A stretch of DNA of 64,000 nucleotides. Source: Chiloscyllium plagiosum. Its lineage: Eukaryota. The notes under the pieces are model-generated. The model was not told the DNA's origin. It worked only from the letters and a program-made list of their open reading frames with translations, and ran no database searches. Positions 263 to 64,000 of this stretch are shown here, piece by piece (position 1 is the stretch's first letter; every line of letters starts with the position of its first letter). The stretch covers positions 97,219,644 to 97,283,643 of the forward strand of contig NC_057718.1 in the NCBI RefSeq assembly GCF_004010195.1, in the 5' to 3' direction. The translations under genes were made by a program, and so were the position numbers.

Positions 263-1078
263 ATGTTTAGAATCAGATGGAGCTGTGTCTGACCGGCAGG
301 ACTGTCCTTACTCACCCTTTTTCAATCTTGAATTTTGCCTTAAAAATTCCAGTGTCGTTGGAAGACTGTCAACATCTAGATGCCTCATCGAAAACAGCAA
401 ACTTTTGCTTTAACCAGCACCTGGTGAACCGGCAGTCTCAATAAACCAGCTAAAGTAGATACCCGAAATACCAGACATTTACTGTATTATTGCAGCCTAC
501 CGAGTGGTCAGTTGAGGGTGATCAGGCTCTCTGCCAGTCAGTTTTATTTCAGGCAGGGTTGCATTATTTTTTAAGTTATTTATGCAGTAAATAAAGCAAC
601 GTGCATACCCCCTGCATTATGATTCTATTACTTGGAGCGTTTTTATACTGATGCTGACGGCCTCTTGATTTTCCGGAATATTTGATCAGTCGACACACTA
701 CTGGTCTCAGAGATGCTGGTTAATGCAAAACTTGTTGTCATAGATGTACAGCACGGAAACAGACCCTTCAGTCCAATTCATCCCTGCTGACCAGATATCC
801 AAAATTAATCTAAATTAAACCATTTGCCAGTATTTGGTGCATATCCCTCTCAACCCTTCTGATTCATATACCCATCCAGATGCCTTTTAAATGCTGTCAT
901 TGTACTGGCCTCCACCACTTCCTCTGGCAGTTCATTCCATACACGTACCACCCTCTGTGTGAAAAAGTTGTCCCTTAGGTCACTTTTAAATCTTTCCCCT
1001 CTCACCTTAAACCAATGCCCTGTAGTTTTGGACTCCCCTACCCTGGGAAAAAGACTTTGTTTATTCACCCTATCCATG

Positions 1079-1281
1079 ATTTGGAGATGCCGGTATTGTA
1101 CTGGGGTGTACAAAGTTAAAAATCACACAACACCAGGTTATAGTCCAACAGGTTTAATTGGATGCACACTAGCTTTCAGAGCGACGCTCCTTCATCAGGT
1201 GATAGTCAGGTGAAAGCTAGTGTGCTTCCAATTAAACCTGTTGGACTATAACCTGGTGTTGTTGTGATTTTTAACTTTGTA
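1079..1281. mobile_element. PLE-terminus fold-back insertion, family B
   Basis: Inverted arms (AAAAATCACACAACACCAGGTTATAGTCCAACAGG.. and its complement); 13-bp TSD CACCCTATCCATG at 1066-1078 and 1282-1294. Confidence 0.85.
1170..1198 (-). ncRNA. Minimal type-I hammerhead ribozyme motif
   Basis: Minus strand reads CTGATGA-A-GGAGC-GTC-GCTCT-GAAA-GCTA: core, helix II, palindromic AGCU, CUA triplet. Confidence 0.7.
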
Positions 1282-2234
1282 CACCCTATCCATGCCTCTC
1301 ATGATTTTATAACCCGCTATAAGGTCACCCCTCAATCTCTGACGTTCCAGAGAAAATAGCCTCAGTGTATTCAGCCTCTCCCTGTAGCTCAAAATCCTCC
1401 AATCCTGGCAACATCCTTGTAAATCTTTTCTGAACCCTTTCAAATTTAACAACATCCTTTCTCTAGGAAGGAGACCAGAATTGCATGTGATATTCTAAAA
1501 GTGGCCTAACCAATGTCCTGTACAGCCACAACATGACCTCCCAACTCCTGTACTCAATACACTGACCAATAAAGGAAAGCATACCAAACGCCTTCTTCAC
1601 TAACCTATCTATCTGGGATTCCACTTTCAAGGAACTATGAACCTGCACTGCTCACAATCTTGGTTCAGCAATACTCCCCATAAAATGCATAAGTCCTGCC
1701 CTGGTTTGCTTTTCCAAAATGCAGCACCTCACATTTATCGAAATTAAATGCCATCCGCCACTCCTTGGTCCATCTGATCAAAGTCCCGTTGTACTCTGAG
1801 ATATCCTTCTTCACAGTTCACTGCGCCACCAGTGACTGAGGGTTTTACTTCTGTCGGAGCTTACAGACATGGCTGACCTGTCTGATGGCCTGTCTGATGG
1901 TCTGTCGCATCATCTTGGTCTGGCTCCCAGCAGCACTGCTATTGAAGTAAAGCTGCGATGAAGCATCATTCCTTTGATGTTTCTGTTTGTCACTGTGGGC
2001 TTTGATGTACATTTTTCCAACCCTTTGATCCTGACTGCCGATATTCCTTGCATCTGCCATCATTTCACTTTCTCTAGTATTTATCTCTGCAAGTGTCTCG
2101 ATGTTAACTCTGGCAGTCTGGCAGGGGATATATATATATATATATGTACTCCGCATGCTTGTGTATCGGTCGCTGTCTATCGGTTGTTCACACCGAGGTG
2201 TTCTGATAAAGCGTTTAATTTGAATGCGCAAACC

Positions 2235-2543
2235 TGGCGGCTCAGTGGTTAGCACTGCTGCCTCACAGCCCCAGGGTCCCAGGTTCAATTACAGCCCCGG
2301 GCAACTGTCTGTGTGGAGTTTGCACATTCTCCCCGTGTCTGTGTGGGTTTCCTCCAGGTGCTCCGGTTTCCTCCCACAGTCCAAAGATGTGCAGGTCAGG
2401 TGAATTGGCCATGCTAAATTGCCCATAGTGTTAGGTGCATTAGTCGGAAGGAAATGGGTCTGGGTGGGTTACTGTTCGGAGGGTTGGTGTGGACTTGTTG
2501 GGCCGAAGGGCCTGTTTCCACACTGTAGGGAATGTAATCTAAC
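2235..2543 (+). mobile_element. HE1 V-SINE
   Basis: tRNA A/B-box-like head, V-domain, tail GGGCCGAAGGGCCTGTTTCCACACTGTAGG..AATCTAA. Confidence 0.9.
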
Positions 2544-2837
2544 TTGTTTGTCTTTTTTAAAATACTGTAATCTGACGCAAAACATTTGAATCTCTGGAAT
2601 TCACTGCCTCAGGGAGTTATGAAGACTCAGTCACTGCAAGTTTTTAAAGGGGAGACAGATTTTTGAAATACCGCAGAGTTGGGGGCAATGAGGAGCTGGC
2701 ATAAAGGAAGAGTTGAGGCCTGGGATCTTATTGCATGGTGAGACAGACTTGAGAGGGTGAATGGCCTCCACTTGCTCCTTCATTCTTAAGGAAGGTTAAA
2801 ATAACCAAAATTATACAACAATAGACTATTTTTAAGA

Positions 2838-5085: not shown

Positions 5086-5824
5086 GTTCCCTGGACTTTG
5101 GAAAGCTGTTGAAAATGCTTTGTTTTGGTGGTATCTCTGCTGATAGACTGGTGTCAGTCTCAACCAGATCCAATACTGCTTCGTAAAATTGTAAACAAGT
5201 GACTGAGGAGAGAGATAGCAGTGGAGTGAACACCATGCACACCTGGAGTGACACTTCAGCGTTCTGACACCTGAACCACTCCATTAGTTTGAGCCATTCC
5301 TCAAGAGGCTGTGGGCTCTCTGAGCACTGCACCCACAATGGCTGGAGGAAGCAGATGTGAATGCATTGGCATTGACTTTGGAGTGGCCCTTGTGCCCGTG
5401 CACTTTAAAGGGTACTATGCCTGTCACTCCCTTATCTTATTAACTATACTCTGTGCAGTGCAGTGTAACCTTAAGGCAACTCCACTCCCTCTGCCCATCT
5501 ACCCTTGGATATTTAGGTCCCAGTCGAAACATGTGGTGCTGGAAAAACACAGCAGGTCAGGCAGCATCCGAGTTCCCAGCGTTGAACATCTTGCAGCTAT
5601 GTCTCTGTAGTACTCACAACATCATGCAGTGTAACCTTGATTTAAGCTTAATTAACTTTCTCCCTCAATCTGACCAGCTTCTTCCTCTATAGCAGAGCCG
5701 CTGATGAACCTGTGACATTCCTGTGATTTCACACCTTAATTTCTGAACACCGTTTTCACTCTGAGAGGAGTAGTTAATGCAATCTTCTCCAAGCTCTCGC
5801 TATCTCACACTGGTTTCAATAGTG

Positions 5825-7500
5825 CTAAACCTCAGACATTCTGCCTGATATCTGTCTACCATCTACAAGGCACCCGTCAGAAGTATGACGGAATACTCCC
5901 CACTCGCCTTGTTGGGTGCAGCTCCAGCAACACTCAAGAAGCTTGACACCATCCATGAGCAAGCAGCCTGCTTGATTGGCACCATGTCCATCCCGTTCAA
6001 CATTCACTCCCATCAGCTTCACATCACAGTGCTTGCAGTGGGTACCATCTACAAGGTACAGTGCACAAACCCATCAACATTCCGTTAGCTCCTTCTGAAC
6101 AGATGTTGCCAGACCTGCTGAGTGTCACCAGTTGTTGTGTTTTTACTTCAGGTTTCCTGTATCTGCAGTTCGTTGTTTCCTTGCAGTTTTCCCTTTTGTT
6201 GTAAAGCCCGCAGCGAGATCCGAAAGACAGCACAGCATGAGATGGTGAAGCCTGGAGCGGGATCCTAGAGACAGTGCAGCATGGGATGGTGAAAGCTGGA
6301 ACGGGATCCTAGAGACAGTGCAGCATGGGATGGTGAAGCCTGGAGCGGGATCCTAGAGACAGTGCAGCATGGGATGGTGAAGCCTGGAGCAAGACTCTAG
6401 AGACAGTGCAGCATGGGATGGTGAAGCCTGGAACGGGATCCTAGAGACAGTGCAGCATGGGATGGTGAAACCTGGAGCGGGATCCTAGAGACAGTGCAGC
6501 ATTGGATGGTGAAGCCTGGAGTGGGATCCTAGAGACAGTGCAGCATGGGATGGTGAAAGCTGGAGCGGGATCCTAGAGACAGAGCAGCATGGGATGGTGA
6601 AACCTGGAGCGGAATCCTAGAGACAGTGCAGCATGGGATGGTGAAGCCTGGAGCAAGACCCTAGAGACAGTGCAGCATGAGATGGTGAAGCCTGGAGTGG
6701 GATCCTAGAGACAGTGCAGCATGAGATGGTGAAACCTGGAGCTGGATCCTAGAGACAGTGCAGCATGGGATGGTGAAGCCTGGAGCAAGACCCTAGAGAC
6801 AGTGCAGCATGGGATGGTGAAGCCTGGAGCAAGACCCTAGAGACAGTGCAGTATGAGATGGTGAAGCCTGGAGTGGGATCCTAGAGACAGTGCAGCATGA
6901 GATGGTGAAACCTGGAGCGGGATCCTAGAGACAGTGCAGCATGGGATGGTGAAGCCTGGAGTGGGATCCTAGAGAGAGTGCAGCATGGGATGGTGAAACC
7001 TGGAGCTGGATCCTAGAGACAGTGCAGCATGGGATGGTGAAGCCTGGAGCAAGACTGTCGCGGCAAGGAAGGAAATGTTGGACTTTCTTTCAGATATCTT
7101 TCTTAATTTTTTAATTTTATTTTTAAGTTTAGAGAATGACGCCATTTCATGGTGATGGTATAAACTTTTCACTGTCTTCTATATTGAATATACGTGACAA
7201 TGAATGATTTTATTATTCATTATTATCATTATTCTGCAGCAGCTTCCAAATTTGCACCTTACACCCTCCCCAGGAACATGATCAGCATTTGTATTGGAGC
7301 CCATTACCTGCAAGTCCACAGCCCATACTCACCTGTAACTACATTGCTGTGCCTTCGGTGTCACTGAGTCAAAATCTTGGATTTTCCATACCAACAGCAC
7401 TGTTCCTACCCCACACGGACCACTGAGGATCAAGAAAGCAGCTCACCACCACCTTCTCTGGGGGTGTTGGGGAATGGACGGAAGTCCTGGTCTAGAGAGT
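5825..7500 (+). mobile_element. Second CR1/L2-group LINE 3' fragment (5825-6075 and 7235-7500), split by later insertions
   Basis: Peptide TIYKA.VRSM.EYSPLA..GAAPATLKKLDTIHEQAACLIG; 3' part AAGAAAGCAGCTCACCACCACCTTCT. Confidence 0.75.
6224..7053 (+). repeat. 44-bp minisatellite, about 19 copies
   Basis: Unit GAGACAGTGCAGCATGGGATGGTGAAGCCTGGAGCGGGATCCTA starts at 6268, 6312 ... 7016 with exact 44-nt period and no spacers. Confidence 0.97.
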
Positions 7501-8115: not shown

Positions 8116-8640
8116 AGGCATGGCCTCAGAATAGACATCCAGCTTCGAGGTGATTCCAGAACAATCGCCCAGCCTCAAGAGCCTCTGGAGCAGTCTGGAG
8201 TCAAGGCCCAGCATAGACTGGAGGCTAGGTGCCAGTGCAGGCTGCATTGGAAGGACTGTTACTCTGAGCTCTTTATTTAGCTCTTTTCTAATTTATTCCA
8301 ACAAGCTGTATTGCTGGACATGTTATTTAGTTTTCTAATTTTTTTGGCCTAAGAGGAATCCTCACCTGGGTACTTTATACCTAAGATGACACCGTAACTG
8401 GCGACTTGTTAACTTTTTATTTTTCTCATTTGACTGCATGTGACAATAAAGATAATTCAATTCAGTGAAAATGTTGTTGCTCTTTCCTCTCCCCAGATGC
8501 TCCCTGACCTGCTGAGATTCACCAGCACTTTCAATTTGGATTGTTGCACTGACCTACCTTGGACAGAGCGTGTTTTCCAGCTTCTGCTTCATTCCCAATG
8601 ACTTTCATGTTCCTATAGGGTTGGCATTATCACTTATTAA

Positions 8641-9404
8641 GAGAACACCACCCACGCCCTCCACCTCCTCCATGATTTTTGCTTCCATGGCCCCCAACGC
8701 CTTATCTTCACGATGGATATCCAGTCCCTATACACTTTCATCCCCCATCACGAAGGACTCAAAGCCCTCCGCTTCTTCCTCTCCCGCCAACCCAACCCTC
8801 AGCCCTCCGCTTCTTTCTTTCCCGCCGTACCGACCAGTACCCTTCTACAGACACCCTCCTTCGACTGACTGAACTGGTCCTCACCCTGAACAACTTCTCT
8901 TTCCAATCCTCCCACTTCCTCCAAACCAAAGGAGTAGCCATGGGCACCCGCATGGGCCCCAGCTATGCCTGCCTCTTCGTCGGATATGTGGAATAGTCCA
9001 TCTTCCACAGCTACACAGGCACCACCCCCCCACCTTTTCCTCCGCTACATCGATAATTGTATTGGCGCTACCTCGTGCTCCCATGAGGAGGTTGAACAGT
9101 CCATCCCCTTTACTAACACCTTCCACCCCAACCTCAAATTTACCTGGACAGTCTCAGACTCCTCCCTCCCCTTCCTAGACCTCTCCATTTCTATCTCGGG
9201 CGACCGACTCAACACAGCCATTTACTATAAACCGACCGACTCCCACAGCTACCTAGATTACGCCTCCTCCCACCCTGCCCCCTGTAAAAACGCCATCCCA
9301 TATTCCCAATTCCTTCGTCTCCGCCGCATCTACTCCCGGGAGGACCAATTCCAATACCGAACAACCCAGATGGCCTCCTTCTTCAAGGACCGCAATTTCC
9401 CCCC
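8641..9404 (+). pseudogene. Penelope-like (Neptune-type) reverse transcriptase fragment
   Basis: Joined frames give LIFTMDIQSLYT.IPH.EGL, LVLTLNNFSF, QTKGVAMGTRMGPSYACLF, FLRYIDN, LPFLDLSI, YKPTDSHSYL..SSHP; one stop and frameshifts; runs into the N gap. Confidence 0.9.
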
Positions 9405-9543
9405 NNNNNNNNNNNNNNNNNNNNNNNNNNNNNNNNNNNNNNNNNNNNNNNNNNNNNNNNNNNNNNNNNNNNNNNNNNNNNNNNNNNNNNNNNNNNNNNN
9501 NNNNNNNNNNNNNNNNNNNNNNNNNNNNNNNNNNNNNNNNNNN
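9405..9543. other. Assembly gap (139 N)
   Basis: Run of N. Confidence 1.
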
Positions 9544-9939
9544 ATTTTACTGCTGCTTGGATGCTGCCTGAACTGCTGTGCTCTTCCAGCATCACTAATC
9601 CAGATTGAGGATAGTACTGAGCGGCCTTTTTCTGTACTACCCCGATCTCTATGACTCTTTAATTTCTGAAAGATAGTACTTTCCTACACAAATATGCCCT
9701 CAGCACAACACCGAATTGGCAATCTACAATGGCCTACATTTTCCAAATACCATCAGAATATGTTTGATCAAAGATAATCTTAAAGATTGCCCAAATACCT
9801 CCTGGAGAAGTCTCCAGCCAGAATTCAAAGTCTGGCCTGTCCCAAATGTGTCCACAAGAGGAAATGTTGTTTTTTTGGGGGGGGGGGGGAAAGCGGAGAG
9901 GTCAGGAAGATGATTGCAGGTCAAGAGGGCGGTGTTGAC

Positions 9940-10113
9940 CCTCACCCCCTTCCACCTATCGTATTCCCAGCGCCCCTCCCCCAAAGTCTCTCCCCAGCCA
10001 CCTTTTATCTCAGCCCGCTTGGCACACCAGCCTCATTCCTGAAGAAGGGCTTATGCCCGAAACGTCGATTCTCCTGCTCCTCGGATGCTGTCTAGCCAGC
10101 TGCGCTTTTTCCA
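9940..10113 (+). mobile_element. PLE 3' terminus (pLTR), family A
   Basis: C-rich UTR, then hammerhead, then TTCTCCTGCTCCTCGGATGCTG..TTTTCCAGCA, the same terminus as in the family-A fold-backs. Confidence 0.8.
10037..10068 (+). ncRNA. Minimal type-I hammerhead ribozyme motif (intact core)
   Basis: CTGAAGA (10039-10045)-A-GGGC-TTAT-GCCC-GAAA-CGTC (10063-10066); palindromic ACGU and GUC triplet. Confidence 0.75.
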
Positions 10114-10289
10114 GCATTATCACTTATTAATAAAGAAGGTGGTCAAGGTGACTGAACAACAGCAGCAGGTCAAATCTTTTCATCGTCAGATGTTGGTCTT
10201 TGCATAGGCCACCTCTTCACCTGTGCCAGTGCTTCCATTTTGCCTCACAAGTAACGTGTTTTTATCATTGACAACTTCTCATTGACAGT

Positions 10290-11880
10290 ATTCTTTTTAC
10301 TCGTGTGGGATGTGGGTGTCGCTGGTTGGGCCCAGCACTTATTGCCCGTCCCTAGTTGCCCCTTGAGAAGGTGGCGGTGAGCTGCCTTCTTGAACTGCTT
10401 CAGTCCACCTGCTGTGGGTTGACCCACAATGCACTTCGGGAAGGATTTCCAAAATTTTGACCCAGTGACAGTGAAGGAACGACAACATATTTCCAAGTCA
10501 GCATGGTGATTGGCTTGGAGGGGAACGAACAGGTGATGGTGTTTCCATTCATCTGGTGCCCTTGTCCTTCTAGATCGAAGTGGCCGTGGGTTTGGAATGT
10601 ACTGTTTGAGGATCTTTGGTAATTTCTGCAATACATCTTTAAGATGGCACACACTGCTGCTACTGAGCATTGGTAGTGGAGGGAGTGGATGCTTGTGGAT
10701 GTTATGCCAGGTCAAGCGGGCTGCTTTGTCCTGGATGGTATCAAGCTTCTTGAGTGTTGTTGGCACTTAACTCACCCAGGAGAGTATTCCATCACACTCT
10801 TGACTTGTACGTTGTAGATGGCGGATAGGCTTTGGGGAGTCAGGAGGTGAGTTACTCGCTGCTGTATTCCTAGACTCTGATTGGCTCTTGTGGCCATGTA
10901 TTAACGCCATCCCATTCTCCCAATTCCTTCGTCTCCGCCGCATCTGCTCCCAGGAGGACCAGTTCAAAATACGTACAACACAGATGGCCTCCTTCTTCAA
11001 GGACCGCAATTTCCCCCCCGACGTGGTCGACGGTGCCCTCCACCACATCTCCTCCACTTCCCGCTCCTCCGCCCTTGAGCCCCGCCCCTCCAACCGCCAC
11101 CAGGACAGAACCGCCTTCTTGAACTGCTTCAGTCCACCTGCTGTGGGTTGACCCACAATGCACTTCGGGAAGGATTTCCAAAATTTTGACCCAGTGACAG
11201 TGAAGGAACGACAACATATTTCCAAGTCAGCATGGTGATTGGCTTGGAGGGGAACGAACAGGTGATGGTGTTTCCATTCATCTGGTGCCCTTGTCCTTCT
11301 AGATCGAAGTGGCCGTGGGTTTGGAATGTACTGTTTGAGGATCTTTGGTAATTTCTGCAATACATCTTTAAGATGGCACATACTGCTGCTACTGAGCATT
11401 GGTGGTGGAGGGAGTGAATGCTTGTGGATGTTATGTCAGGTCAAGTGGGCTGCTTTGTCCTGGATGATATCAAGCTTCTTGAGTGTTGTTGGCACTTAAC
11501 TCACTCAGGAGAGTATTCCATCACACTCTTGACTTGTACGTTGTAGATGACGGATAGGCTTTGGGGAGTCAGGAGGTGAGTTACTCGCTGCTGTATTCCT
11601 AGACTCTGATTGGCTCTTGTGGCCATGTATTAAGTCCGGTTGAGTTTCTGGCTCAGAATGGCAACGATGGTCTTAATCTGAGCAACATCTGATACCTTGA
11701 GTGTTGTTGGGGCTACACTCATCCATCCCACTCTTGACTTGTACATTTGTAGATGGCGGATAGGCTGTGGGGAGTCAGGAGGTGAGTTACTCACCGCTGT
11801 ATTCCTAGCCTCTCATCGGCTCTTGCGGCCACTGTGTTTATGTGGTGAGTCCAGTTGACATTCTGGCCTTACTCTGGCTC
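10290..11880 (-). mobile_element. Second CR1/L2-group LINE 3' end with a 521-bp internal duplication
   Basis: PTTLKKLDTIQDKAARL.., FKKAAHRHLLKG and tail shared with SINE family 2; 10384-10904 is repeated at 11113-11633. Confidence 0.8.
10905..11112 (+). mobile_element. Penelope-like ORF fragment
   Basis: AIPFSQFLRLRRICSQEDQF..RTTQMASFFKDRNFPPDVVDGAL; closely similar to 9291-9404. Confidence 0.85.
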
Positions 11881-15575: not shown

Positions 15576-15946
15576 AAAATAATGTGCTGTTGATGTCCTG
15601 ACTAGTGTGGTTGTTAGGACCAGCATAGCTGGACTGGACTGGGCAGTGCTCCTGTGTTACACTGAACTGCACACAGCCACACGTCGTCTCTTTTCAGCAG
15701 ATGATTTTGTTGAATCAGAATTTGATGACCGTTCACTCCAGCCCACTGAAAGGATATTCAGGATTGGTTCACCCACCCTGAAATATGTTTGCAAAGAGCG
15801 GTAATTGGAACTGCATATTATTCCTGCTGCCGAATGGATAGAAATTCAGACCCGTTCAGATATTTCTACCATGGTTTGATGCAGCTGCAAGGTGATCTCG
15901 TGAGAAACCAGGAAAAGCTCAAATAATACCAACAGCATCCAATCAA

Positions 15947-16155
15947 AGCTAAAAATCACACAACACCAGGTTATAGTCCAACAGGTTTAATTGGAAGCAC
16001 TGGCTTTCAGAGCGCTGCTCCTTCACCGGGTGGTTGGATGAAGGAGCGTCGCTCCGAAAGCTCGTGCTTCCAATTAAACCTGTTGGACTATAACCTGCCG
16101 TTGTGTGACTTTTAACTTTGTACATTCCAGTCCAACACTGGCATCTCCAAATCAT
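15947..16155. mobile_element. PLE-terminus fold-back insertion, family B
   Basis: Inverted arms; two damaged hammerheads at the turn; 13-bp TSD AGCATCCAATCAA at 15934-15946 and 16156-16168. Confidence 0.85.
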
Positions 16156-16415
16156 AGCATCCAATCAACTTCTGATTCTTAGAAAATGCTTTTCCTTGCA
16201 ACAAAGCCGCAAGAGAGATTTCCCAACAGCTGCCTGACACTTAATTCCAGATTTTTATTGAATTCAAATACCATCATCCACCAAAGGCAGGATTTGAACC
16301 TGGGTCCCCAAAACATCACCTGGGTCTTTAGACTAACAGTCCAGCGATAATACCACTAGTCCATTGTCTTGCCTATATCTAGTGTATGCTACATTCCTGA
16401 AGCACATTCATGGAT

Positions 16416-23642: not shown

Positions 23643-24006
23643 TATAAAATTATTAATGGATTGGACACTCTGGAGGCAGGAAGCATGTTTCTGCTGATGG
23701 GTGAGTCCAGAACCAGAGGACACAGTTTAAAAATGAGTAGGAAGGCCATTTAGAACAGAGTTGAGGAGAAACTTCTTCACCCAGAGAGTGGTGGTTGTGT
23801 GGAATGCTCTGCCCCAGAAGGCAGTGGAGGCCAAATCTCTGGATACTTTCAAGAACGAGATGGATAGAGCTCTTAGAGATAGTGGGATCAAGGGTTATGG
23901 GGATAAGGCAGGAACAGGATACTGATTGTGGGTGATCAGCCATGACCAGAATGAATGGTGGTGCTGGCTCGAAGGGCTGAATGACCTACACCTGCACCTA
24001 TTGTCT
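23643..24006 (+). mobile_element. CR1-clade LINE 3' end (non-HER1 subfamily)
   Basis: YKIINGLD..GESRTRGHSLK, then AACTTCTTCACCCAGAGAGTGGTG and tail GGCTCGAAGGGCTGAATG. Confidence 0.85.
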
Positions 24007-24011
24007 ATTGT

Positions 24012-24167
24012 GGAAATGTGTTGCTGGAAAAACGCAGCAGGTCAGGCAGCATCTAGGGAACAGGAGAATCCACGTTTCGGGCATTAGCCCTTCTTCAGAT
24101 TCTCCTTTTCCCTAGATGCTGCCTGACCTGCTGCGTTTTTCCAGCAACACATTTCCATCTCTGATCT
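24012..24167. mobile_element. PLE-terminus fold-back insertion, family A
   Basis: Inverted arms; minus-strand hammerhead 24071-24098 with GUC changed to GUG; flanked by a 71-bp direct duplication. Confidence 0.8.
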
Positions 24168-42232: not shown

Positions 42233-43483
42233 AATGCTGTTTTCCCCCAACGGACATTGTGTAGAATCTGTAGATGTTTCACTGTTTTAGCATCGCTGTG
42301 CAAGTTCAAGTTACGGCGATCACTGATTGACCAAAGTTCCCAGCCTTTCAAAACCATAAGCCCATAAGGCAAAGGAATGGTGGTAGGCCAATGAGCTCAT
42401 CGAATTTACTCTGCCATTCAGTGAGACCATGGCTGACCTGTAGTCCTCAACCTTACTTCCCTATCTTTTCTGCACAGTGTTTGAAAGATGCAGGCCATTT
42501 ACTGATGTCTTTTTGTTTTCCAACTGGCTTGTGTGCTATTTAGGAGACAATGCACTGTTTTACAGCACTGAGTTTGAGATTCAATTCAGCCATTGAATGC
42601 ATGGAGCTTAAATGGGAAAACCCTGTTTTGGTAACACTGCAGATGCCAGTACATACAAACACTTACAGACTTACCGAATTGTGTTTCTAATAGCTGAGAC
42701 TGTTGACTTTGGAGTTAGGTGTGTTTTTTTTATTATGCAATATCATCCATATTGGAAGCTATTATTCTTCTTTAAAATGCTTCTGTGATTAAACATTTTA
42801 AGTGGACCTTCAATGCCAGGATTGAGATGATCGTTCCTTTGTTTCCTTTGAAAAATACTGTTCCCAAGTGTGTGTCCCAGCATCTGGAATGTCACCAAAA
42901 TAGGACTTGCCAGTTTAAGCTCAGTGCTGAATTGAACTTCAAGGCAAGAAGCTTTAAGACAGAAAATCTTCTCCGAATTAGTTACAGTCCAATCAATTGG
43001 CTTTCTTCTGTGAGAGAGTACAATGGCTTTGATCTAATGTGAAATCTTTTACACATTCGGATAATAGTTCAGCTGCAACAAAATTGAAAAGAATGGATGA
43101 GAAGTCAAATGCCTTTTCAAATACCGATATTGGAAAGGTTCCATCACTCGAGTCTAACAGAATTAGTAATGTTTTCCTTTGAAATCTGAATGAATGAATG
43201 GCACAACATCAAAAGAGGGTAGAGTCTGTGACACAGTAGGATGTTCAGTGGAGCCTCAGGAAATCTGGTTAAGAAGATAAACTCGATTAAGAAGTAAGGT
43301 AACTATGGTCAAACCGGACAATAGGGGCGGCTCTCTTATTAAAGGGGTTTCATCTGAGGGTCACCTCGCCTCTGGCAAGGGGAGAGTTGAGAAGGAGAGT
43401 CCATTGTTGTAATCTCAACCAAGTATGGGAATTGAACCCATGCTGCTGGTATCTCAAACTGGCTAGCCAGTTAGCTGAGCTAA

Positions 43484-43708
43484 GTCGAGAGTGCGTTGCT
43501 GGAAAAGCGCAGCAGGTCAGGCAAGCATACGAGGAGCAGGAGAATAGACGTTTCAGGCCGGAGCCCTTCATCAGCAACTTTCCTGGTGAAGGGCTCTGGC
43601 CTGAAATGTTGATTTTCCGGCCCCTCGGATGCTGCCTGACCTGCTGTGCTTTTCTAGGAACACACTCTCGACTCTGATCTCCAGCATCTGCAGTCCTCAC
43701 TTTCTCCT
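43484..43708. mobile_element. PLE-terminus fold-back insertion, family A
   Basis: Inverted arms; 15-bp TSD AGTTAGCTGAGCTAA at 43469-43483 and 43709-43723; minus-strand hammerhead core at 43547-43574. Confidence 0.88.
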
Positions 43709-44519
43709 AGTTAGCTGAGCTAACCAGCACCACCAAGAATTGTGGATGGCTCAATCTAATTGCCACTGAGCTGATCTTACACACCCAGTGTGTTCAACTT
43801 AGTGTTTAAGTGTTCATCTTAAACACTTGCACCATGTTTATACTAAAATACACAAAATTAATACTTAGACAAAAAGAACAACTGGTGTGACCAGCCTTCC
43901 CCAAGCCCTATGATAGCTCAAGCATCAGAAATAAATATACAGACTTCATGCCCATCGTTGCTCTGCCTCCACAGTTCCTGAGAGAGGTGAAAGAAAGAAT
44001 CAAAGGCCAAATAACAACAAGTTACATTTGCCTAGCACTTTCCATGCAGCACAACACCTCCAGAGTTCTTCGCAGGAGCTTAACAAAGCAAAATTAGGCA
44101 TCGAGTCCGCTTTAGGAGTATTTCAGTCAGATGACCAAAAACCTGGTCAAAGCGATGGAGGTGAAAGGACGGTCTGAGAGAAGGAAAGCCTGGATGAAGA
44201 GCATGGCAAGGATCCTATGGCACAGTTACCAGTGGTGGGCTGATTAAAGTTGGTGATGCACAAGAAGCCAGGATCAGATGAGTTTAGATATCCCGGTGGC
44301 TTGTGGGCTTTGAGGAGAAGGCAAAGCGAGGGAATTGTAAAGAAGGATGAAATTTTTAGATGTTGCTTGAACAGGAGCTAAAGTGGCCTGGAACAGGGGG
44401 ATAGAGTGAATGGAAAGTAGCAACAAAGCTTTGACCATGTTAAGTGTACAGGGAAATGGCACATTAAAGACCAACTGGGATTTACATGGGAGGGTGCGGG
44501 GGGGAGGGGGTTGCAAGGT

Positions 44520-44870: not shown

Positions 44871-45049
44871 CAAAGTTAAAAATCACACAACACCAGGTTA
44901 TAGTCCAGCAGGTTTAGTTGAAAGCACTAGCTTTCGGAGCGCTATTCCTTCATCAAGTAGCTTCCAGATAAACCTGTTGGACTATAACCTGGTGCTGTGT
45001 GATTTTTAACTTTGTCCACCCCAGTCCAACACCAGCTCCTCCACATCAT
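44871..45049. mobile_element. PLE-terminus fold-back insertion, family B
   Basis: Inverted arms; imperfect TSD ATGCAGCAA / ATGCAACAA. Confidence 0.8.
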
Positions 45050-45071
45050 ATGCAACAAGACCTGGACAATA

Positions 45072-45176
45072 GTCGAAAAGTGTAGTGCTGGAAAAGCACA
45101 GCAGGTCAGGCAGCATCCGAGGAGCAGGAGAGTCAACGTTTTGGGCCACGCCCTTCAGCAGGAATGCCTGATCAGG
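45072..45176 (-). mobile_element. Solo PLE terminus, family A
   Basis: 15-bp TSD AAGACCTGGACAATA at 45057-45071 and 45177-45191; decayed hammerhead. Confidence 0.8.
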
Positions 45177-46010
45177 AAGACCTGGACAATATCCAAGTTT
45201 AGGCTGAAAAGTGGCCAGTGACATTTGCACCACAGAGGAGCTGAACACTGACGATCTCCAAGAAGGGAGAATCGCACCATCACCCCTTGACATTCAATAG
45301 CATTGCGATCACTGAATGCACCTGACACCAACATCCTTGGGGTCACCATCATGTGCTTAAAAATGTGTTGCTGGAAAACTCAAGAGCAGGTCAGAGGCTA
45401 GGAGTCCTGCAGTGAGTAACTCCCGCCCCCCCCCAACAACTGTTCCCTTTCATTGTCTTCCTGACTGTGCGGGCCTTCGAGGGTGATGCCTGGCACTACC
45501 TTCTGGAACCAAAAGCCAATACTCTGATAGGCATGCTGATGCCGATCAGCATGTGTGGAACGTCGGAGCGGCTGTGCACCTATGCAGCCATGCTGTGTAG
45601 AGGGAATGCTGCTCCTGACTCTCCATGGCCTGTCCACCATCTACATGGCACAAGTCAGGAGTGGGATGGAATACACCCCACTTATCTGAATGGGTGCAGC
45701 TCCAGCAACACTCAGGAAGCTCAGCAGCATGTGCCGTCTACATGACACACAGCAGAACTTCATGCACCCTACAAACTTAAGCACCCTCCAAACCCACTTC
45801 CATCCAGAAGGACAAGGGCAGCAGATACATGGGAGCACCACCCCCCTGCAAGTTCCCCTCCTAGCCACTCACCACCCTGACCTGACCGTTCCTTCAGGAT
45901 TGCAACATCAAAGTCCTGGACCACCCTTCCTAATGGGACTGTAAATCTTCCTCAGCCAGAAGGACTATATTGGTTCAAAAGAAGGCAGCTCACCACCACC
46001 TTCTCAAGAG
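45177..46010 (+). mobile_element. Second CR1/L2-group LINE 3' fragment (rearranged)
   Basis: CCACCATCTACATGGCACAAGTCAGGAGTG..CAGCTCCAGCAACACTCAGGAAGCT..AAGGCAGCTCACCACCACCTTCTCAAG. Confidence 0.7.
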
Positions 46011-46017
46011 CACAAAC

Positions 46018-46525
46018 GTAGAAATTGTTGGAAAAGCTCAGCAGGTCTGGCAGCATCTGTGGAGAGAAATCCACAGATTTCTCCAGTGACCCTTCCTCAG
46101 TTCTGATTTCTCTCCACAGATTAGATTAGATTAGATTACATTACAGTGTGGAAACAGGCCCTTCAGCCCAACAAGTCCACACCGACCCGCCGAAGCGAAA
46201 CCCACCCACACCCCTACATTTACCCCTTACCTAACACTACGGGCAATTTGTATGGCCAATTCACCTGACCCTGCACATCTTTGGATGGTGGGAGGAAACC
46301 GGAGCACCCGGAGGAAACCCACGCAGACACGGGGAGAATGTGCAAACTCCACACAGTCAGTCGCCTCAGGCGGGAATTGAACCCGGGTCTCTGGCGCTGT
46401 GAGGCAGCAGTGCTAACCACTGTGCCACCGTGCTGCCCTAGATGTTGCCAGACCTGCTGGGCTTTTCCAGCAATTTCTGTTGTTGTTTCTGATATTAAAG
46501 CATCCGCAGTTTTTTTGGTTTTTAC
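46018..46525. mobile_element. PLE-terminus fold-back, family C, with HE1 inserted in the right arm
   Basis: AGAAATTGTTGGAAAAGCTCAGCAGGTCTGGCAGCATCTGTGGAGAGAAATC versus its complement on both sides of HE1; minus-strand CTGAGGA-AGGGTC remnant near 46086-46100. Confidence 0.7.
46120..46438 (-). mobile_element. HE1 V-SINE, young full-length copy
   Basis: Complete GGGCAGCACGGTGGCACAGTGG head, CpG-rich body, (AATCT)n tail. Confidence 0.92.
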
Positions 46526-46719
46526 CTTCTCAAACGCAACTGGATAGGAGTGACAACTTTGCAGGAACGAGTAAGAAACAACAAAGGTTTTTGAGCAAAG
46601 GTTTTGCTGAAATGCTTACATTTGTCGTTTGTGCATTTTCCTCTTTTAAAAGCTTCAGTGACAATCGTTGTTCCTTTTACTCTCCGACCATAAGCAAATT
46701 GGAGCTCTTAACTATTTAA

Positions 46720-49269: not shown

Positions 49270-49274
49270 TATAT

Positions 49275-49499
49275 AGGTGAAATTGGGTACTGCAGATGCT
49301 GGAGATTAGAGTCAAGATTAGAGTGGTGCTGGAAAAGCACAGCAGGTCAGGCAGCATCCGAGGAGCAGGAGAATCGACGTTTTGGGCAAAAGCCCTTCAT
49401 CAGGAATGATAAAGGGCTTTTGCCCAAAATGTCAATTTTCCTGCTCCTCGGATGCTGCCTGATCTGCTGTGCTTTTCCAGCACCACTCTAATCTTGACT
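49275..49499. mobile_element. PLE-terminus fold-back insertion, family A
   Basis: Inverted arms of about 90 bp; TATATAGG at 49270-49277 and 49499-49506; both hammerheads have GAAA changed to AAAA. Confidence 0.85.
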
Positions 49500-49567
49500 A
49501 TATAGGCTATGCTGCCATTCAGTAGTAACCTCCACGATGTTGGTCTTGGAGGAATTCAGTCGCACTC

Positions 49568-50271: not shown

Positions 50272-50865
50272 GTCATAGAGTCATAGAGATGTACTGAAAA
50301 ATGTGTTGCTGGAAAAGCGCAGAGGGTCAGGCAGCATCCAAGGAGCAGGAGAATCGACGTTTCAGGCATATGCTGCACTTTTCCAGCAACACAATTTTCA
50401 GCTCTGATTTCCAGCATCTGCAGTCCTCACTTTCTCCTCATAGAGATGTACAGCATGGAAACAGACCCTTCGGTCCAACCCGTCCATGCCGACCAGATAT
50501 CCCAACCCAATCTAGTCCCACCTGCCAGCACCCAGCCCCTATCCCTCCAAACCCTTCCTATTCATATACCCATCCAAATGCCTCTTAAAAAGTTAAGAGG
50601 CATTTATACCAGCCTCCACCACTTCCTCTGGCAGCTCATTGCATACACCCTCTGCATGAAAAAGTTACCCCTTAGGTCTCTATTATATCTTTCGCCTCTC
50701 ACCCTAAACCTATGCCCTCTAGTTCTGGACTCCCCGACCGCAGGGAAAAGACTTTGCCTATTTACCTTATCCATGCCCCTCATAATTTTGTAAACCTCTA
50801 TAAGGTCATCCCTCAGCCTCCGACGCTCCAGGGAAAACAGCCCCAGCCTGTTCAGCCTCTCCTTG
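50272..50865 (-). mobile_element. HER1-like LINE 3' fragment with a PLE insertion in its tail
   Basis: HER1 motifs as in other copies. Confidence 0.85.
50295..50438. mobile_element. PLE-terminus fold-back, family A (centre deleted)
   Basis: 14-bp TSD TCATAGAGATGTAC at 50281-50294 and 50438-50451. Confidence 0.82.
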
Positions 50866-51129: not shown

Positions 51130-51253
51130 TGCCTGACGAAAAAGTTACGCTCCGAAAGCTAGTGCTTCCAAATAAACCTGTTGGACTATAATCTGGTGTT
51201 GTGAGATTTTTAACTTTGTTCACACCAGTCCAACACCGGCATCTCCAATTCAT
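51130..51253 (+). mobile_element. Solo PLE terminus, family B
   Basis: CTGACGA..GCTCCGAAAGCTAGTG through CGGCATCTCCAATTCAT; helix II damaged. Confidence 0.75.
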
Positions 51254-55190: not shown

Positions 55191-55230
55191 CAAGTCGGGT
55201 GTTCACTTCAGTATTGCTTTCCTTCGGCAG

Positions 55231-55329: not shown

Positions 55330-55540
55330 GTGAGTCATTCTCTGAGTGACAGACCCGACTGCAGTAAACTTGCAATGGTTTCCCGAAAGGCTACACCACT
55401 GCTTTTCTGTCAAACATGGAGACCAGGAGTAGGCCAATTCTGCCTTCAATCCTGCTCTACCATTCATTCTGCTCATTGCTGCTTCTCTATTGTAATCCCA
55501 TATTCCCACTTCCTACCCATGGATGCCTGTATGATCTTCG

Positions 55541-55753
55541 AGGAGGAAGTGAGGTCTGCAGATGCTGGAGATCAAAGTTGAAACTTTATTGCTGGAACAG
55601 CACAGCAGGTCAGGCAGCATCCAGGGAACAGGAGATTCGATGTTTCGGGCACAGGCCCTTTCCTGAAGAAGGGCCTGTGCCCGAAACGTCGAATCTCCTG
55701 TTCCCTGGATGCTGCCTGACCTGCTGTGCTGTTCCAGCAATAAAGTTTCAACT
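55541..55753. mobile_element. PLE-terminus fold-back insertion, family A (best-preserved copy)
   Basis: 85-bp arms 55576-55660 / 55669-55753 with one mismatch; 13-bp TSD TGCCTGTATGATC at 55524-55536 and 55753-55765. Confidence 0.9.
55660..55693 (+). ncRNA. Minimal type-I hammerhead ribozyme motif (intact core)
   Basis: TTC-CTGAAGA-A-GGGC-CTGT-GCCC-GAAA-CGTC-GAA; 3-bp helix I TTC/GAA. Confidence 0.75.
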
Positions 55754-56221
55754 GCCTGTATGATCCAAACAAAATCTATCTCTTCTTTGAATGTATTTAA
55801 TGCGTTGGCTTCCTTTAAAATCTAAGAGAAGATCCCTCTTTCTTGAATAAATTCAGTGACTTGGTCTCCCCTGTGAGGCAATATTATTAAGAGTCAGGTA
55901 ACCAAGGCAGGTGAATAGAATTAAGATATGGATCGATCATGTTCGAATGGTGGTGCAGGCTTGATTGACAAACTGCTCGCTTCTTGTTCCTCTGCACAGT
56001 GTGAGAATCCATTGCCCCCCTGCCGATCTCATGTATCTCAATTGTAACGAGTGAAAGAAGATGTGCATTTACATATTTGTACATTTATACAGGATCTTTC
56101 ATGGCTACGGAATGTCCCAAAACACCGTACAAAAATGAAGTAATTTTGAAATGTAATCATTGCTGCCCAGTAGGAAACAGGACAGCCAATTTACACACAG
56201 GAAGCTCCAAAATGAGGTATC

Positions 56222-59865: not shown

Positions 59866-59974
59866 TTTTTGGTACAGTTACTGTGTCTAAACCTATATCT
59901 AAATCCCCTGAGGAAAGGGACTTGTGGTGCTAGCCCAAAGGGTCTAGATTCAAGATCCGACCTGGCTCAGGAGA

Positions 59975-60194
59975 TGGGAGCAAATTACTGCAGAGGCCGG
60001 AATCTGTACTGAACACAGCAAATGCTAGAGATCACAGTGGGTCAGGGAGCATCCATAGAGAGAGCAAGCTAACATCTCGAGTCTAGGTGACTCTTCATGA
60101 GAGCTGACATGAAATCAAGACTGGAAACGTTAGCTTGCTCTCTGTCCATGGAGACTGCCTGACCCATTGTGACCTCCAGTATTTGTTGTTTCAG
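59975..60194. mobile_element. PLE-terminus fold-back, family D (old)
   Basis: Diverged inverted arms (..GGGTCAGGGAGCATCCATAGAGAGAGCAAGCTAAC / GTTAGCTTGCTCTCTGTCCATGGAGACTGCCTGACCC..); combining both arms gives CTnATGA-A-GAGTC-loop-GACTC-GAAA-CGTT. Confidence 0.7.
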
Positions 60195-61832
60195 GATGTG
60201 TCAGTCATGGGTGTGTTGTAACTTGGTTTGGTCACAAAGTAACTTGTCCATGGCATTTCCTTCTGAAGTGCTTAAACCTTGCACCGTTACCTGGTGGGAA
60301 TGAGATGGCTTGACTTGGAGCTCTGCCATCCTGGTGGATAGTGTGGTTGCTAATGGCAACGGCTTGCTCTGCTGTTAGTATAATTGCTAACCCTTCATCC
60401 TCCCCCAGCACGACACCACTGTCTCTTTAAAACCTCATCACCCTCCAATTATTTACTTGTCAGTCTGGTAATTTGAAAATTAGCCTACAGCAGCGGAGGA
60501 CCAATGTGATTACGGCAAACAATTGCAAATAAATTTTAATGAAAACTGGTCAGAGTGGTGTTTTTAGTCAAGTTGAAACAGTAGTCCTTTTTTGTTAGTA
60601 GGTTGTAGAATTCAGTCCTGACCTCCAAAAGGTCTGTATAGTACTGCTGCTTTCAATTAATCTCCTTCCTGCATTTGAACGTAATCATAAATTGCCCTTT
60701 GTGTCTCAATTATTGAGAATGTTTCTTTGTTAACTGAATATGATTAATCAGAACAAGATGACTGATATTGTGCTGTAATTAAACTCTCGCATTCACTGTC
60801 TTTTGTACACTTCTGACAAAAGCTGAATTGCAATTTTGTGAAGGGTGTAGTTAATTTTGTGTACTAATTTTTCTTTAATAGACTTTTTTTCTTTGTTCAT
60901 TTACTTGGTACATGGTAGTTTTATCTTTCATTTCAATTGCATTTATTTTATGCTGTTTGTGTGACACTACATTGCTTCAATTTCAATTGCTTTTGTTTCT
61001 TTCATTTTACTCGCTCACCATTGGAGCCCAAGGCCCTGAAGGAACATAAACCCAAATCCCTGGAATTCCCTCCTTAAACCTCTCTGTCATCCTCACCTTT
61101 TGACAGTCTGTCTAACTCTGCTTCCCTGACCAACCTGTCCTGATAGCTCCTCACATGAATCAGCTTCAACGCTGGCTTATTAAGGGTTTTGCAAAGCATC
61201 CTGGGGGGTGGTTGACCACTAGTTGGATGGCACTATTGTTATTAATCACTGACCTGTCTGGAGCACAGTCAGGATAAGGGGGGCAAGTGAGATGATAATG
61301 AGACCCCCCTCCAGGGGACAAAGGGCTAGCAGTCACACGGTGACCAAAGTACAGATCACTGGTTGCATTGGTGCAGGGGATGGATTTTATCTGCCTCTTT
61401 AGACCCTTTTGAATTTCTGTTGGTGTTTGCTTGAGCTGCTATTGTTTCCAAATTACTGAGCTTGGAAGATGTGATAATGTAGACATTGCGCTTAGATGTT
61501 CAAGACCTCAGTGCGAGATTTGCCCACTCTGCTAGGATGTGACAGCCCTCTCATCTGTGGGATATGGGGACTCTTTCGTTAATAAAGTGTTCCTTGTCTC
61601 TGTTAATCTGTTAAACGTGCATTTGGCAAAGACAGGGGCATGATTGGATCTACCTACCGCATCAGCTTAGTCCAATACCCAGGACAGCATAATTGCATAC
61701 TCCTGTCCCCTCCGGTCACTAGCCTGTCTCCAGTGGAAACTGATCCAGAGCCATGGACCCTTGTCCGCCCCAGATTAGAATCGGTTGTTCCTAATTTTAA
61801 CTGGGAGGTGCACATTTATACATTCAATTGAC

Positions 61833-62335
61833 AGTCAAAAATCACATGACACTGGGTTATAATCCAATAGGTTTATTTGAAACCCTGCTCCTTCCTCACA
61901 TAGCTTGGGAGAGAATACATCAGACACAGAATTTATAAGTAAAAGATGAATGGGTCGTGCAACTGATATGAATTTATTGAACAAATCCAGATGGCTATAA
62001 GCTTTTAATCAGTAAAAATGGGGAGGCAGGTTTTGATCAATTAATACGTAAATCTCAGAATTTCTTACAAGTCAGTGCCCCAAGATAACATAGTTTTATC
62101 AGACCCCTTAGGTCAAACAATGCCTTTAGGTGTGGGAGCCTTACTTTGAGTCTGTTTGTGTCTCCATGGAGTCAGATTGGTTTTATTTCCAAAGAAGGAA
62201 TTTATAAAATGCCACATGGACTGACTGCCAACAGATTGTGTGCTTTCTGAACAAAATAGACTGTATCTGTAAATGCAAATTCACCCCATAGATTTGTGCG
62301 TGAGGGGGAGAGAGAGCACGTGTGTGAGAGACACT
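61833..62335 (-). mobile_element. Decayed PLE 3' region related to family B
   Basis: AAAAATCACATGACACTGGGTTATAATCCAATAGGTTTATTTG..GCTCCTTCCTCA followed by AT-rich UTR-like sequence. Confidence 0.55.
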
Positions 62336-63141
62336 GCATTTGCAATATTGAACGTTATCTCCTTAAAGTTTCCTTTAGTTGATCTAGTTTAGCCATTGAC
62401 ATTGTGAAACCACGGGCATGTGTGATACTGGCATCCCACACTGAACACCCGAATGCACGGCAACCCCTCATCTGCAGAGAATGTATCAAACTGACTGGAA
62501 AAATACACCTTCCTCACGGATACTGCACCAAACACCAATTTCTTCGTTCATTCATCTGCTTGGTTGGGTGTGAATGATTCCTCGAAGAACCAGGGTCTAT
62601 CTCTGGTGTCTCAGCCAATGCTTATCACTCCATCAACATCACAAAGACAGAGAATCTGGTTATCATTACCGTGCTGTGTGGGGGAGCTTGCTGTCTGCAT
62701 ATTGCCTACCAAGTTCCCTCCCTTCCCACTTGGCGATGCCACGGACATCACTGCAAGAATGGAGTTTTTGTTTTAAATAGCCTCCCTCTTGCTATCTGTA
62801 ACTCTGTCTATGCCTTTGGAATAAACTATCAACTTTGCTTTTTTCTTAAAAAAAAACTTTCTCCAATCAACCTGCTCAGAGATGTTATTAAACACTTCTG
62901 GGACTTGAACCCAGGCCTCCTGGGTCAGAGGTAGGGGCATGACCGCTGCACCACAGGCTCTATTAAAGTGGGCGTTTCGGCTTGTGGCAGGATGTCAAGT
63001 TTGCCAAGAGTTGGGAATTTCGATGATTTTATTACTGAGGCCATCTGCCTGCAGCATGTTCAAGTGTATACCCAAATTGGTCATCATAGCACTTGTAACA
63101 AAAGCTGGTTTGTAGCTGTCAACTAACCTTCTTTAATATGG

Positions 63142-63627
63142 TTAGGGACAAAAAAAAGACCGCAGATGCCGGAATCCAAACTGGACAGGCAGGAGTCCAG
63201 AAGAAGGGTTGCACTTGATGGGTCAAGTTGCCCACCTCCTGATGCTGCCTGGCTTGCTGTGTTCTTCCAGCCTCCTGCCTGTCACCCTTCTTTTCATATG
63301 ATGTGGAGATGCCAGTGTTGGACAAAGTTTAAAAATCACACAACGCCAGGTTATAGTCCAACAGGTTTATTTGGAAGCACTAGCTTTCGGAGCACTGCTC
63401 CTTCATCAGGTGATTGTTCTTAATTACAACTGGAACATGCACATTTACACATTCAATTGTCACAGTCAAAACTCACACGATACCGGGTTATAGTCCAACA
63501 GGTTTATTTGAAACCGCAAGCTTTTGTGCTGATCACAACCACCTAATGCAGGAGCAGCACTCCAAAAGCTAGTGCTTCCAAATAAACCTGTTGGACTATA
63601 ACCTGGTGTTGTGTGATTTTTTTTAAA
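63142..63627. mobile_element. Composite of PLE termini (family E piece plus family B fold-back)
   Basis: Flanked by CTTCTTTAATATGG at 63128-63141 and 63628-63641. Confidence 0.75.
63378..63412 (-). ncRNA. Minimal type-I hammerhead ribozyme motif (intact core)
   Basis: Minus strand CAC-CTGATGA-A-GGAGC-AGT-GCTCC-GAAA-GCTA-GTG; helix I CAC/GTG. Confidence 0.75.
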
Positions 63628-64000
63628 CTTCTTTAATATGGCAATTGCAAAGCCCATTGCAAGGGAGAGATCGAGCCCAATGCTGGGAGAGAGAGATTGA
63701 GACCTGAGCAGGTCAGAGGGTGTCTCATGGAGCATCTACAGGCCTATACACTGCTGAACTTTTAATTTATTTCTTTATTTTTCTATTTTATACTCAAGGT
63801 TCTGTACCTAAGATGGGGGGGGGGGGAATGGCTACCTTGTACACTTTTCACCTTACTCCTGTATGTAAGTACATGTGACAAACCGAATTCTAATTCTCAG
63901 TCCCTCTCTTGTCACCATCCACTGGAGAAGTTCAACATGGAAGAGAGTCAGAATGAAGAGGAAAGGGAAAACTGCTCCACACTGTCACCCAGTGGCCAGG

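Follow-up and report, generated by a model that had tools for sequence, protein, structure and literature searches.

Short hammerhead-bearing hairpins in the Chiloscyllium plagiosum genome: mostly the shortest form of Penelope-like element insertions

Endonuclease-bearing Penelope-like elements (PLEs) insert as a unit composed of a pseudo-long terminal repeat (pLTR), an adjacent inverted and 5′-truncated copy, a 30–40-bp tail and a target-site duplication (TSD), according to the covered parts of PMC8557442 and PMC3846280; the covered part of PMC8969392 also describes a unit of inverted pLTR, tail and TSD. For an anole PLE, two reverse transcriptase (RT) start sites bound the tail, both target strands are extended and a dimer is predicted (PMC11167929, in part). 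Minimal hammerheads are described in PLE pLTRs; those of metazoan PLEs are mainly single motifs from truncated PLEs, and opposite-strand hammerhead pairs 100–700 bp apart are reported from Schistosoma (PMC4209133, in part). How PLEs produce inverted, tailed insertions is stated as an open question in the covered parts of PMC8557442 and PMC11167929. Here, we describe short hairpin insertions in a 64,000-nucleotide stretch of the Chiloscyllium plagiosum genome, referred to as the window (contig NC_057718.1; G000:C9:97219644-97283643; genome size, 3.56 Gb), and their relatives elsewhere in that genome.

The hairpins probably consist of two head-to-head copies of a PLE terminus that were made by twin priming during insertion, stopped near the 5′ edge of the hammerhead ribozyme and were then joined (our probability, roughly 0.7). 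They are the short end of a continuum that includes solo ends, longer inversions and long copies of autonomous PLEs. Element positions below are counted from the C of CTGA as 0.

Sequence matches identify the arms as pLTRs, the hammerhead-bearing ends of PLEs, from two abundant families, A and B, that encode RT and a GIY-YIG endonuclease. A preliminary description of this DNA had proposed that the arms are PLE termini, and loci selected by coding sequence do end in arm sequence. A family A terminus lay downstream in 25/30 RT-selected loci; the misses were two short contigs, one gap and two loci without a terminus. Loci picked by the family B endonuclease region had the B terminus downstream in 28/30 cases and an inverted B arm upstream in 12/30. 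Long family A frames matched RVT_1 over the Pfam cut-off and GIY-YIG slightly below it (E 3e-4) in 2/2 cases, and the terminus of the closest long copies was 96–99% identical to the arm of window hairpin 55541. The Pfam scan of the window's own RT pieces gave no match, and long copies were used in their place; a first look at the genome had returned 56,576 candidates for the window RT piece. In family B, a frameshifted endonuclease region lies upstream of the terminus, and its proteins are 24–38% identical to those of family A. The family A terminus was thought to follow an RT fragment at 8641–10113; the link holds genome-wide, but the window terminus at 9943–10116 is not continuous with that fragment. 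At least four sequence families had also been proposed. Families A–D are present, but C and D share the layout of A, of which they look like older relatives by sequence, and B is unrelated to A.

The tail continues into the N-terminus of the open reading frame (ORF), so the segment doubles as 3′ pLTR and 5′ leader. The same double role is described for the anole PLE in the covered part of PMC11167929. At the end of the family A tail (+113..+130; L291), a branch-point-like motif, a pyrimidine run and an AG stand right before the ORF start. It may be a 3′ splice site; one single-cell poly(A) RNA run gave no splice joint there.

Insertion products were read from a consecutive sample of the youngest subfamily, A1. 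The first 100 A1 termini on C1 were all fetched and represent 80 loci. These 80 insertions comprise 31 short hairpins (~39% of young insertions), 28 short solo ends, 11 mid-length monomers, 7 long copies and 3 longer inversions. The 3′ ends are bimodal, at about +89 and +125. All 31 hairpins carry a 35-nt tail on one arm, and the tail end is always paired with a shorter end that lies at or near +89 in 27 hairpins and is shorter still in 4. TSDs of 8–17 bp flank 28/34 inverted insertions. They vary in length and sequence and have no fixed motif, unlike the fixed-length transposase footprints that the preliminary description had set against a PLE origin.

L1 twin priming, in which both target strands prime RT and an inversion with a microhomology joint results, is a known precedent for such products. 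In the present case, each of the two cut target strands would prime one copy, the start sites (+125 and +89) lying 35 nt apart, and a dimeric PLE protein would perform the twin target-primed reverse transcription. Both copies would halt near the 5′ edge of the ribozyme (−7..+8). The stop may, as a guess, mark where an RNA begins, at the −4 A of TCATTCC in the upstream pLTR. The complementary DNA (cDNA) ends would then be joined by microhomology-mediated repair or by RT template jumps, with the ribozyme a passenger in these copies. An occasional fold-back, to judge from the recurrence of joints described below, may be transcribed from outside and recopied with its joint, the ends being re-trimmed at +125 and +89.

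Copying stops within a narrow zone. Of 100 A1 termini, 74 start in −7..+8 (18 at −4, 14 at −3 and 8 at −5), 19 in the following 153 nt and 7 beyond the fetched stretch. The upstream side is a cliff, with only 4/100 in −8..−17, and with copies treated as independent the stop rate in the zone is 9.5× the upstream rate. Genome-wide, an exact match extends to −8 in only 4,977 of 16,537 A1 termini, a count that mutation lowers somewhat. The 100-terminus sample is blind to stops past +8, which are covered by an unselected set of 39 family A termini; 31 of these start in −10..+9 and 1 in +20..+29. The zone lies ~30 nt upstream of the predicted ribozyme cut site. The ribozyme region had been expected to limit the copied segment, and the turn is indeed far from random, at the 5′ edge of the ribozyme, but cutting is not the limit.

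Run-off at an RNA 5′ end, primed within the leader of the messenger RNA (mRNA) itself, would fit the sharp cliff on the upstream side. Position −4 is the A of TCATTCC, which we take to be an initiator-like motif in the upstream pLTR. Between an RNA end and a block by the ribozyme region the odds are about even, slightly favouring the RNA end. As a full account, twin priming arrested by the hammerhead region, either by a folded or dimeric ribozyme or by bound PLE protein, is the strongest alternative and somewhat unlikely; it is the idea of the preliminary description in a non-cleavage form. The pile-up at the helix I 5′ strand in two unrelated families speaks for it, as does the protein-assisted anole ribozyme (PMC11167929, in part), and the RNA start was not seen in one run. 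Against it, the RT has already passed the helix I 3′ strand and helix II before the stop, the monomer folds weakly, and the upstream cliff is as sharp as run-off would give. Ribozyme mutants of the anole element also left the size of the in vitro insertion product unchanged, as reported in the covered part of PMC11167929.

Several points weigh against twin priming with run-off at an RNA end as a general account. The consecutive sample requires an exact +8..+24 and represents one subfamily on one chromosome arm. Coding partners were traced for families A and B; none were traced for C and D. The family B pile-up is weaker, with 8/22 unselected termini in −10..+9 and 23/39 arm-selected termini in −15..+9, and the family B stop has no clear initiator. 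Of four RNA data sets compared, two were contigs, from which starts cannot be read, one gave no alignments, and one single-cell poly(A) run covered the stretch and showed no pile of molecule starts, which neither backs nor refutes an RNA start; no excess of a cap-derived G was seen at position −5 in solo 5′ joints. The D. virilis start is located 46 bp ahead of an intron that ends directly at helix I (covered parts of PMC2377424 and PMC4209133), so that in this species the start is separate from the ribozyme edge. Among the joints treated below, the two simple recurring types (7/50 each) cannot be assigned to new or clonal origin, and the clonal share may therefore exceed the 1–3 of 31 seen.

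In the same run, 79 reads clipped at −4, together with reads clipped at the end of the tail, confirm the element limits in another sample; read-through of genomic stubs explains the −4 clips. A splice acceptor at helix I, as in D. virilis, was rejected, as neither A nor B has an AG at that place. Copies reading through into the ORF gave no decisive 5′ ends, as 10/20 ran into assembly gaps.

The two arms differ in reach. Of the 31 hairpins, 20 have the short-ended arm extending further, 8 the tail arm, and in 3 both arms reach equally far; the L243 tail arm consists of +104..+125 only, a segment absent from the other arm. These two observations argue for two primers over the snap-back of a single cDNA at a small palindrome near the ribozyme with self-priming of the second strand, as proposed for rotifer PLEs. 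A short-ended cDNA cannot give a tail, and the strict 35-nt offset of the ends requires a second priming event. Snap-back nevertheless has some support: palindromic head-to-head joints were interpreted as self-priming in the covered part of PMC3846280, several joints (L211, L245, L259 and L261) have inserts copied from helix II or just downstream, and private variants occur on both arms in 5/60 young hairpins. We regard it as improbable. Under twin priming, the tail arms may be shorter because a trailing RT must displace the leading cDNA.

Most joints look newly made. The 31 consecutive young hairpins have 28 distinct joints, and the first 50 listed of 2,120 A1 hairpins have 26 by a count made by eye; the two commonest of these, with 7 hairpins each, are both 3-nt microhomologies. 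The exact 55541 joint occurs at 27 loci against 2,120 A1 hairpins. A whole-hairpin search (copies 95–100% identical) favours the joint of the query, found in 16/29 other copies, and was replaced by pattern counts and the consecutive sample. Joints are overlaps of 1–3 nt (up to 5 nt), blunt, or inserts partly copied from neighbouring element sequence. Among 19 solo ends with a TSD, the 5′ joint is a microhomology (1–5 nt) in 12, an insert in 6 and blunt in 1. This style resembles polymerase-theta-type end joining or RT template jumps. A variant core found on both arms occurs with two different joints, each also found without the variant. Variants shared by two arms, including the 5/60 private changes, fit copying of both arms from one template; later conversion between arms is possible.

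Within this continuum, with its mostly unique joints, the hairpins are not chiefly a separate non-autonomous class. The proposal that they are minimal non-autonomous PLE products was not borne out in the form put forward. Whether junctions recur or are unique had been suggested as a check, and both answers were obtained: most hairpins are independent products, and a minority belong to clonal lines.

A complex 27-nt joint is common to two sampled hairpins on different chromosomes, which also have in common a change confined to one arm. This joint occurs at 31 loci, of which 22 were examined. The marker is on the left arm in 19/22 and on the right arm in none; two of these 19 have a flank in common and may stem from a single event. 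The remaining 3/22 lack the marker and read through into the ORF, and one of them consists of an inverted arm, a pLTR, a short ORF start and a second pLTR inside a TSD. In complete hairpins of this line, the tail is left in 5 and right in 7 and faces a shorter end; 10 hairpins each have a different TSD of their own. Tails on either arm and separate TSDs indicate that a pre-formed joint was inherited and the ends were set anew. A second, longer fold-back (−76/−149 joint) occurs at 199 loci and shares a host-like flank in 4/4 examined; two of its copies share 818 bp, ~365 bp of it past the arm. In the consecutive sample, 1/31 short hairpins belongs to the 27-nt-joint line and 2 more have a similar complex joint. 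Clonality is thus seen in one minority line by joint, marker and ends and in a second by its shared captured flank, and not in most young hairpins. No window copy was shown to be clonal; copies with the 55541 joint have no common one-arm marker save a CpG change favoured by the query. An inversion joint of −127/−91 at L139:4785 and L266, with a common one-base change, probably represents a third clonal line.

In recopying, both primers may lie on the sense arm of the RNA, one cDNA crossing the joint and the two cDNAs annealing through their complementary arms. Tails on either arm would also result if both strands were transcribed. Tentatively, and with somewhat less than even confidence, we suggest that PLE fold-backs can turn mobile, their hairpin RNA being recopied with the joint intact and the ends re-cut at +125 and +89 on either arm, and that most stubs are strong-stop-like run-off of the PLE mRNA 5′ end. 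The broader idea that the hairpins are chiefly a self-propagating non-autonomous family, in which a few masters are transcribed and recopied by PLE protein in trans, is slightly less probable still than snap-back. The 27-nt joint with its one-arm marker and differing TSDs, and the longer fold-back with its shared flank, are what one would expect of it. The 28 distinct joints among 31 consecutive hairpins are not, nor is the small number of loci that share the joint of the window's best copy; solo ends with the same limits are also as frequent as hairpins.

Hammerheads were searched with a descriptor for the minimal type-I form, which comprises a CUGANGA + GAAA core, paired helix II, palindromic helix III, NUH and a short helix I. 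It matched 294 times in 1.06 Mb of DNA, a set enriched by selection, and 0 times in the reversed control; helix I has 3–4 pairs in 261/294 matches. By sequence, the motif fits a minimal type-I hammerhead ribozyme. In the window, the strict descriptor was satisfied by one arm in 4/11 hairpins (1079, 43484, 55541 and the outer arm of 63298) and by the terminus at 10039, and by both arms in 0/11. An intact or damaged hammerhead at each turn had been reported; the strict motif supports this in the four hairpins, but it is never in both arms, and the ribozyme core is absent from 50295. The motifs stand head-to-head on opposite strands, so a transcript holds at most one sense motif. An Rfam scan of the window found no hammerhead family, and the hairpins gave only sub-threshold microRNA-like matches. 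As a monomer, the hammerhead folds no better than shuffles (z-scores −0.5 to +1.2).

The predicted cleavage site lies after +27, assuming the standard hammerhead rule. Self-cleavage that sets the template end and thereby the turn is very unlikely. One window arm, 24098, does begin exactly at +28, but a cut after +27 would strip the catalytic core, which most arms include, and the cut site is not the turn because only 1/39 unselected A termini falls in +20..+29, against 31/39 in −10..+9. No cleavage-site reads are reported for the anole element in the covered part of PMC11167929. A miniature inverted-repeat transposable element (MITE) of a DNA transposon would be short, non-coding, palindromic, numerous and flanked by duplications as these hairpins are, yet this identity has next to no probability and is refuted by the mapping of the arms to PLE termini joined to RT/GIY-YIG frames, with ends asymmetric in 31/31, TSDs of 8–17 bp without a fixed motif, and differing joints.

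The set of 11 hairpins and 3 solo ends first reported in the window was found in full at the places given. Short inverted repeats occur 11 times in the window, whereas ten block shuffles each gave 0. With natural copies as BLAST references, 10 hairpins were paired automatically, all 10 head-to-head and none tail-to-tail; the eleventh (46018) is interrupted by a later 310-bp repeat insertion. TSDs of 8–15 bp had been claimed for most insertions. They are clear at seven hairpins and one solo end, with the lengths listed below; the remainder are weak, absent or a 76-bp duplication. Flanks match over merely 6–7 bp at 59975, 63298 and solo end 51130, and comparison of the flanks of hairpin 44871 and solo end 39130 found no TSD. 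The features are as follows.

1079–1281: family B fold-back, tail arm left (turn −8), short arm right (from +20); intact hammerhead motif, − strand, 1198; 13-bp TSD, 1066–1078 / 1282–1294; inside an older repeat.
8645–9404 (+): broken RT fragment of a family A PLE, 85–89% identical to long copies; N gap at its end.
9544–9596 (+): family A terminus piece directly past the N gap; likely the end of the RT fragment itself.
9943–10116 (+): family A monomer with 81 nt of 3′ untranslated region (UTR), intact hammerhead motif at 10039, and terminus; probably a separate insertion, since it is not continuous with 8645–9404.
15947–16155: family B fold-back, short arm left, tail arm right; turns −3/+2; 13-bp TSD, 15934–15946 / 16156–16168.
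24012–24172: family A fold-back; turn 0/+28; flanked by a direct duplication, 23936–24011 / 24168–24243.
39130–39254 (+): family A solo end with tail; begins at the 5′ edge of the hammerhead.
43484–43708: family A fold-back; turn −3/−4; tail arm right; 15-bp TSD, 43469–43483 / 43709–43723.
44871–45048: family B fold-back; turn −2/+33; tail arm right; no clear TSD.
45072–45176 (−): family A solo end without tail; 15-bp TSD, 45057–45071 / 45177–45191.
46008–46523 (hairpin 46018): old family C fold-back with a dispersed repeat inside at ~46124–46433; 10-bp TSD, 45998–46007 / 46524–46533.
49275–49498: family A fold-back; turn −9/+1; tail arm left; 8-bp TSD, 49270–49277 / 49499–49506.
50295–50437: short family A fold-back without ribozyme core; turn +10/+59; 14-bp TSD, 50281–50294 / 50438–50451.
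51132–51252 (+; solo end 51130): family B solo end with tail.
55537–55752 (hairpin 55541): young subfamily A1 fold-back; turn +6/−3; 35-nt tail, tail arm left; intact hammerhead motif, + strand, 55663; 13-bp TSD, 55524–55536 / 55753–55765.
59974–60194 (hairpin 59975): old family D fold-back; damaged hammerhead; flank match of 6 bp at most.
63298–63621: composite family B element with tail arm 63299–63417, a spacer matching 61785–61832, and inner fold-back 63461–63621; intact hammerhead motif in the outer (tail) arm, − strand, 63409.

The direct duplication around hairpin 24012 is 76 bp long and 98.7% identical and stands in for a short TSD. In the composite at 63298, the spacer and inner arm (63414–63515) match, at 85%, a stretch 1.6 kb upstream (61785–61884) that comprises a family B remnant with its flank, as if the insertion had copied in local DNA. 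Extra short terminus remnants of families A, C and B, absent from the preliminary description, lie at 5522–5572, 8484–8532, 61833–61882 and 63236–63271. A second, young fragment of the family A ORF at 10894–11112 is 97% identical to a long copy and sits inside another repeat. A minisatellite at 6204–7050 has 19 copies of a 44-bp unit (91% matches). Assembly gaps frequently start within pLTR copies (L281, L284, L285, L287, L288, L292, L294 and L297–L299; window 9405–9543), and the assembly of this genome therefore under-represents tandem and inverted PLE structures.

Abundance was estimated in 40 stretches of 10 kb at fixed positions (384,610 non-N bases), counting only families present in the window. 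They contain 97 termini and 21 short hairpins, or 1 hairpin per 18 kb, which extrapolates to ~194,000 short hairpins genome-wide (Poisson range, 120,000–297,000). The window is about 3× as dense, with 10 per 64 kb against 21 per 384.6 kb. A very large class at 1 per 6 kb had been predicted; the size stands, at ~190,000 copies, but the genome average is 1 per 18 kb. Exact-pattern counts for A1 gave 16,537 termini and 2,120 short hairpins, the latter defined by two exact helix II copies with ≤24 nt between. Some 190,000 perfect-looking hairpins may be mistaken for MITEs or microRNA precursors. The expected ease of misannotation as MITEs agrees with their being short, palindromic and abundant, and their weak Rfam matches in the window are to microRNA models.

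These copies bear on how PLEs insert. Thousands of nearly unmutated products, with starts, stop and joints legible to the base, offer a direct test of insertion models. The clonal line with its tail on either arm shows that each insertion sets its tail afresh and does not inherit it. If true, mobile fold-backs would be the inverted, TSD-making counterpart of retrozymes and a genomic read-out of two priming sites.

Non-LTR retrozymes are likewise short, non-coding, hammerhead-bearing PLE derivatives that amplify in vertebrates, but they are head-to-tail tandem units, whereas these hairpins are head-to-head single units with TSD and tail (bioRxiv 10.64898/2026.07.22.740005, in part). Tandem units that each carry a hammerhead, which define a retrozyme, were not found in the hairpins. 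The RNA run that covered the stretch contained no joint of a circular RNA intermediate, although its library type and depth were ill suited to revealing one. Separately, head-to-tail 224-nt units of pLTR and ORF start occur at several loci, for example L257 (G000:C1:16162733-16163597), with up to 5 in a row at G000:C8:24157651-24158516; they are retrozyme-like non-autonomous derivatives of family A. A second mini-element of ~320 nt per unit (L287, L288, L290, L292 and L300) has a deletion joint from the ORF start at ~+250 to −70 in the 3′ UTR.

In core, short helix I and palindromic helix III, the motif resembles the minimal type-I hammerheads of metazoan PLEs; the Schistosoma pairs are 100–700 bp apart, whereas here the motifs are 10–40 nt apart and a whole motif is mostly in just one arm (PMC4209133, in part). 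In anole Poseidon PAc, the ORF starts in stem II, whereas in C. plagiosum the first likely start codon lies ~36 nt beyond the tail; the covered parts of its main text do not treat fold-back products or a ribozyme-edge stop (PMC11167929). Relative to L1 twin priming, in which the arms span different parts of the RNA, here the same part is copied from two fixed starts. A literature search that did not extend to Repbase, Dfam or subscription journals found no account of recopied fold-backs or of a stop zone at the ribozyme 5′ edge; a prior description is possible.

The closest system is the PLE insertion unit, which has the same head-to-head pLTRs, one-ended tail, 8–17-bp TSDs, microhomology joints and RT with C-terminal GIY-YIG (PMC8557442 and PMC3846280, in part). 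The present hairpins differ from the unit in those covered parts in having only two arms of ~90 and ~125 nt and no ORF while making up ~39% of young insertions, in stopping within 16 nt at the ribozyme 5′ edge, and in that some units are recopied with their joint. The hairpins are mostly the shortest form of the published unit of inverted pLTR, tail and TSD, and the base-level stop zone and a clonal line with the tail on either arm are added to that architecture.

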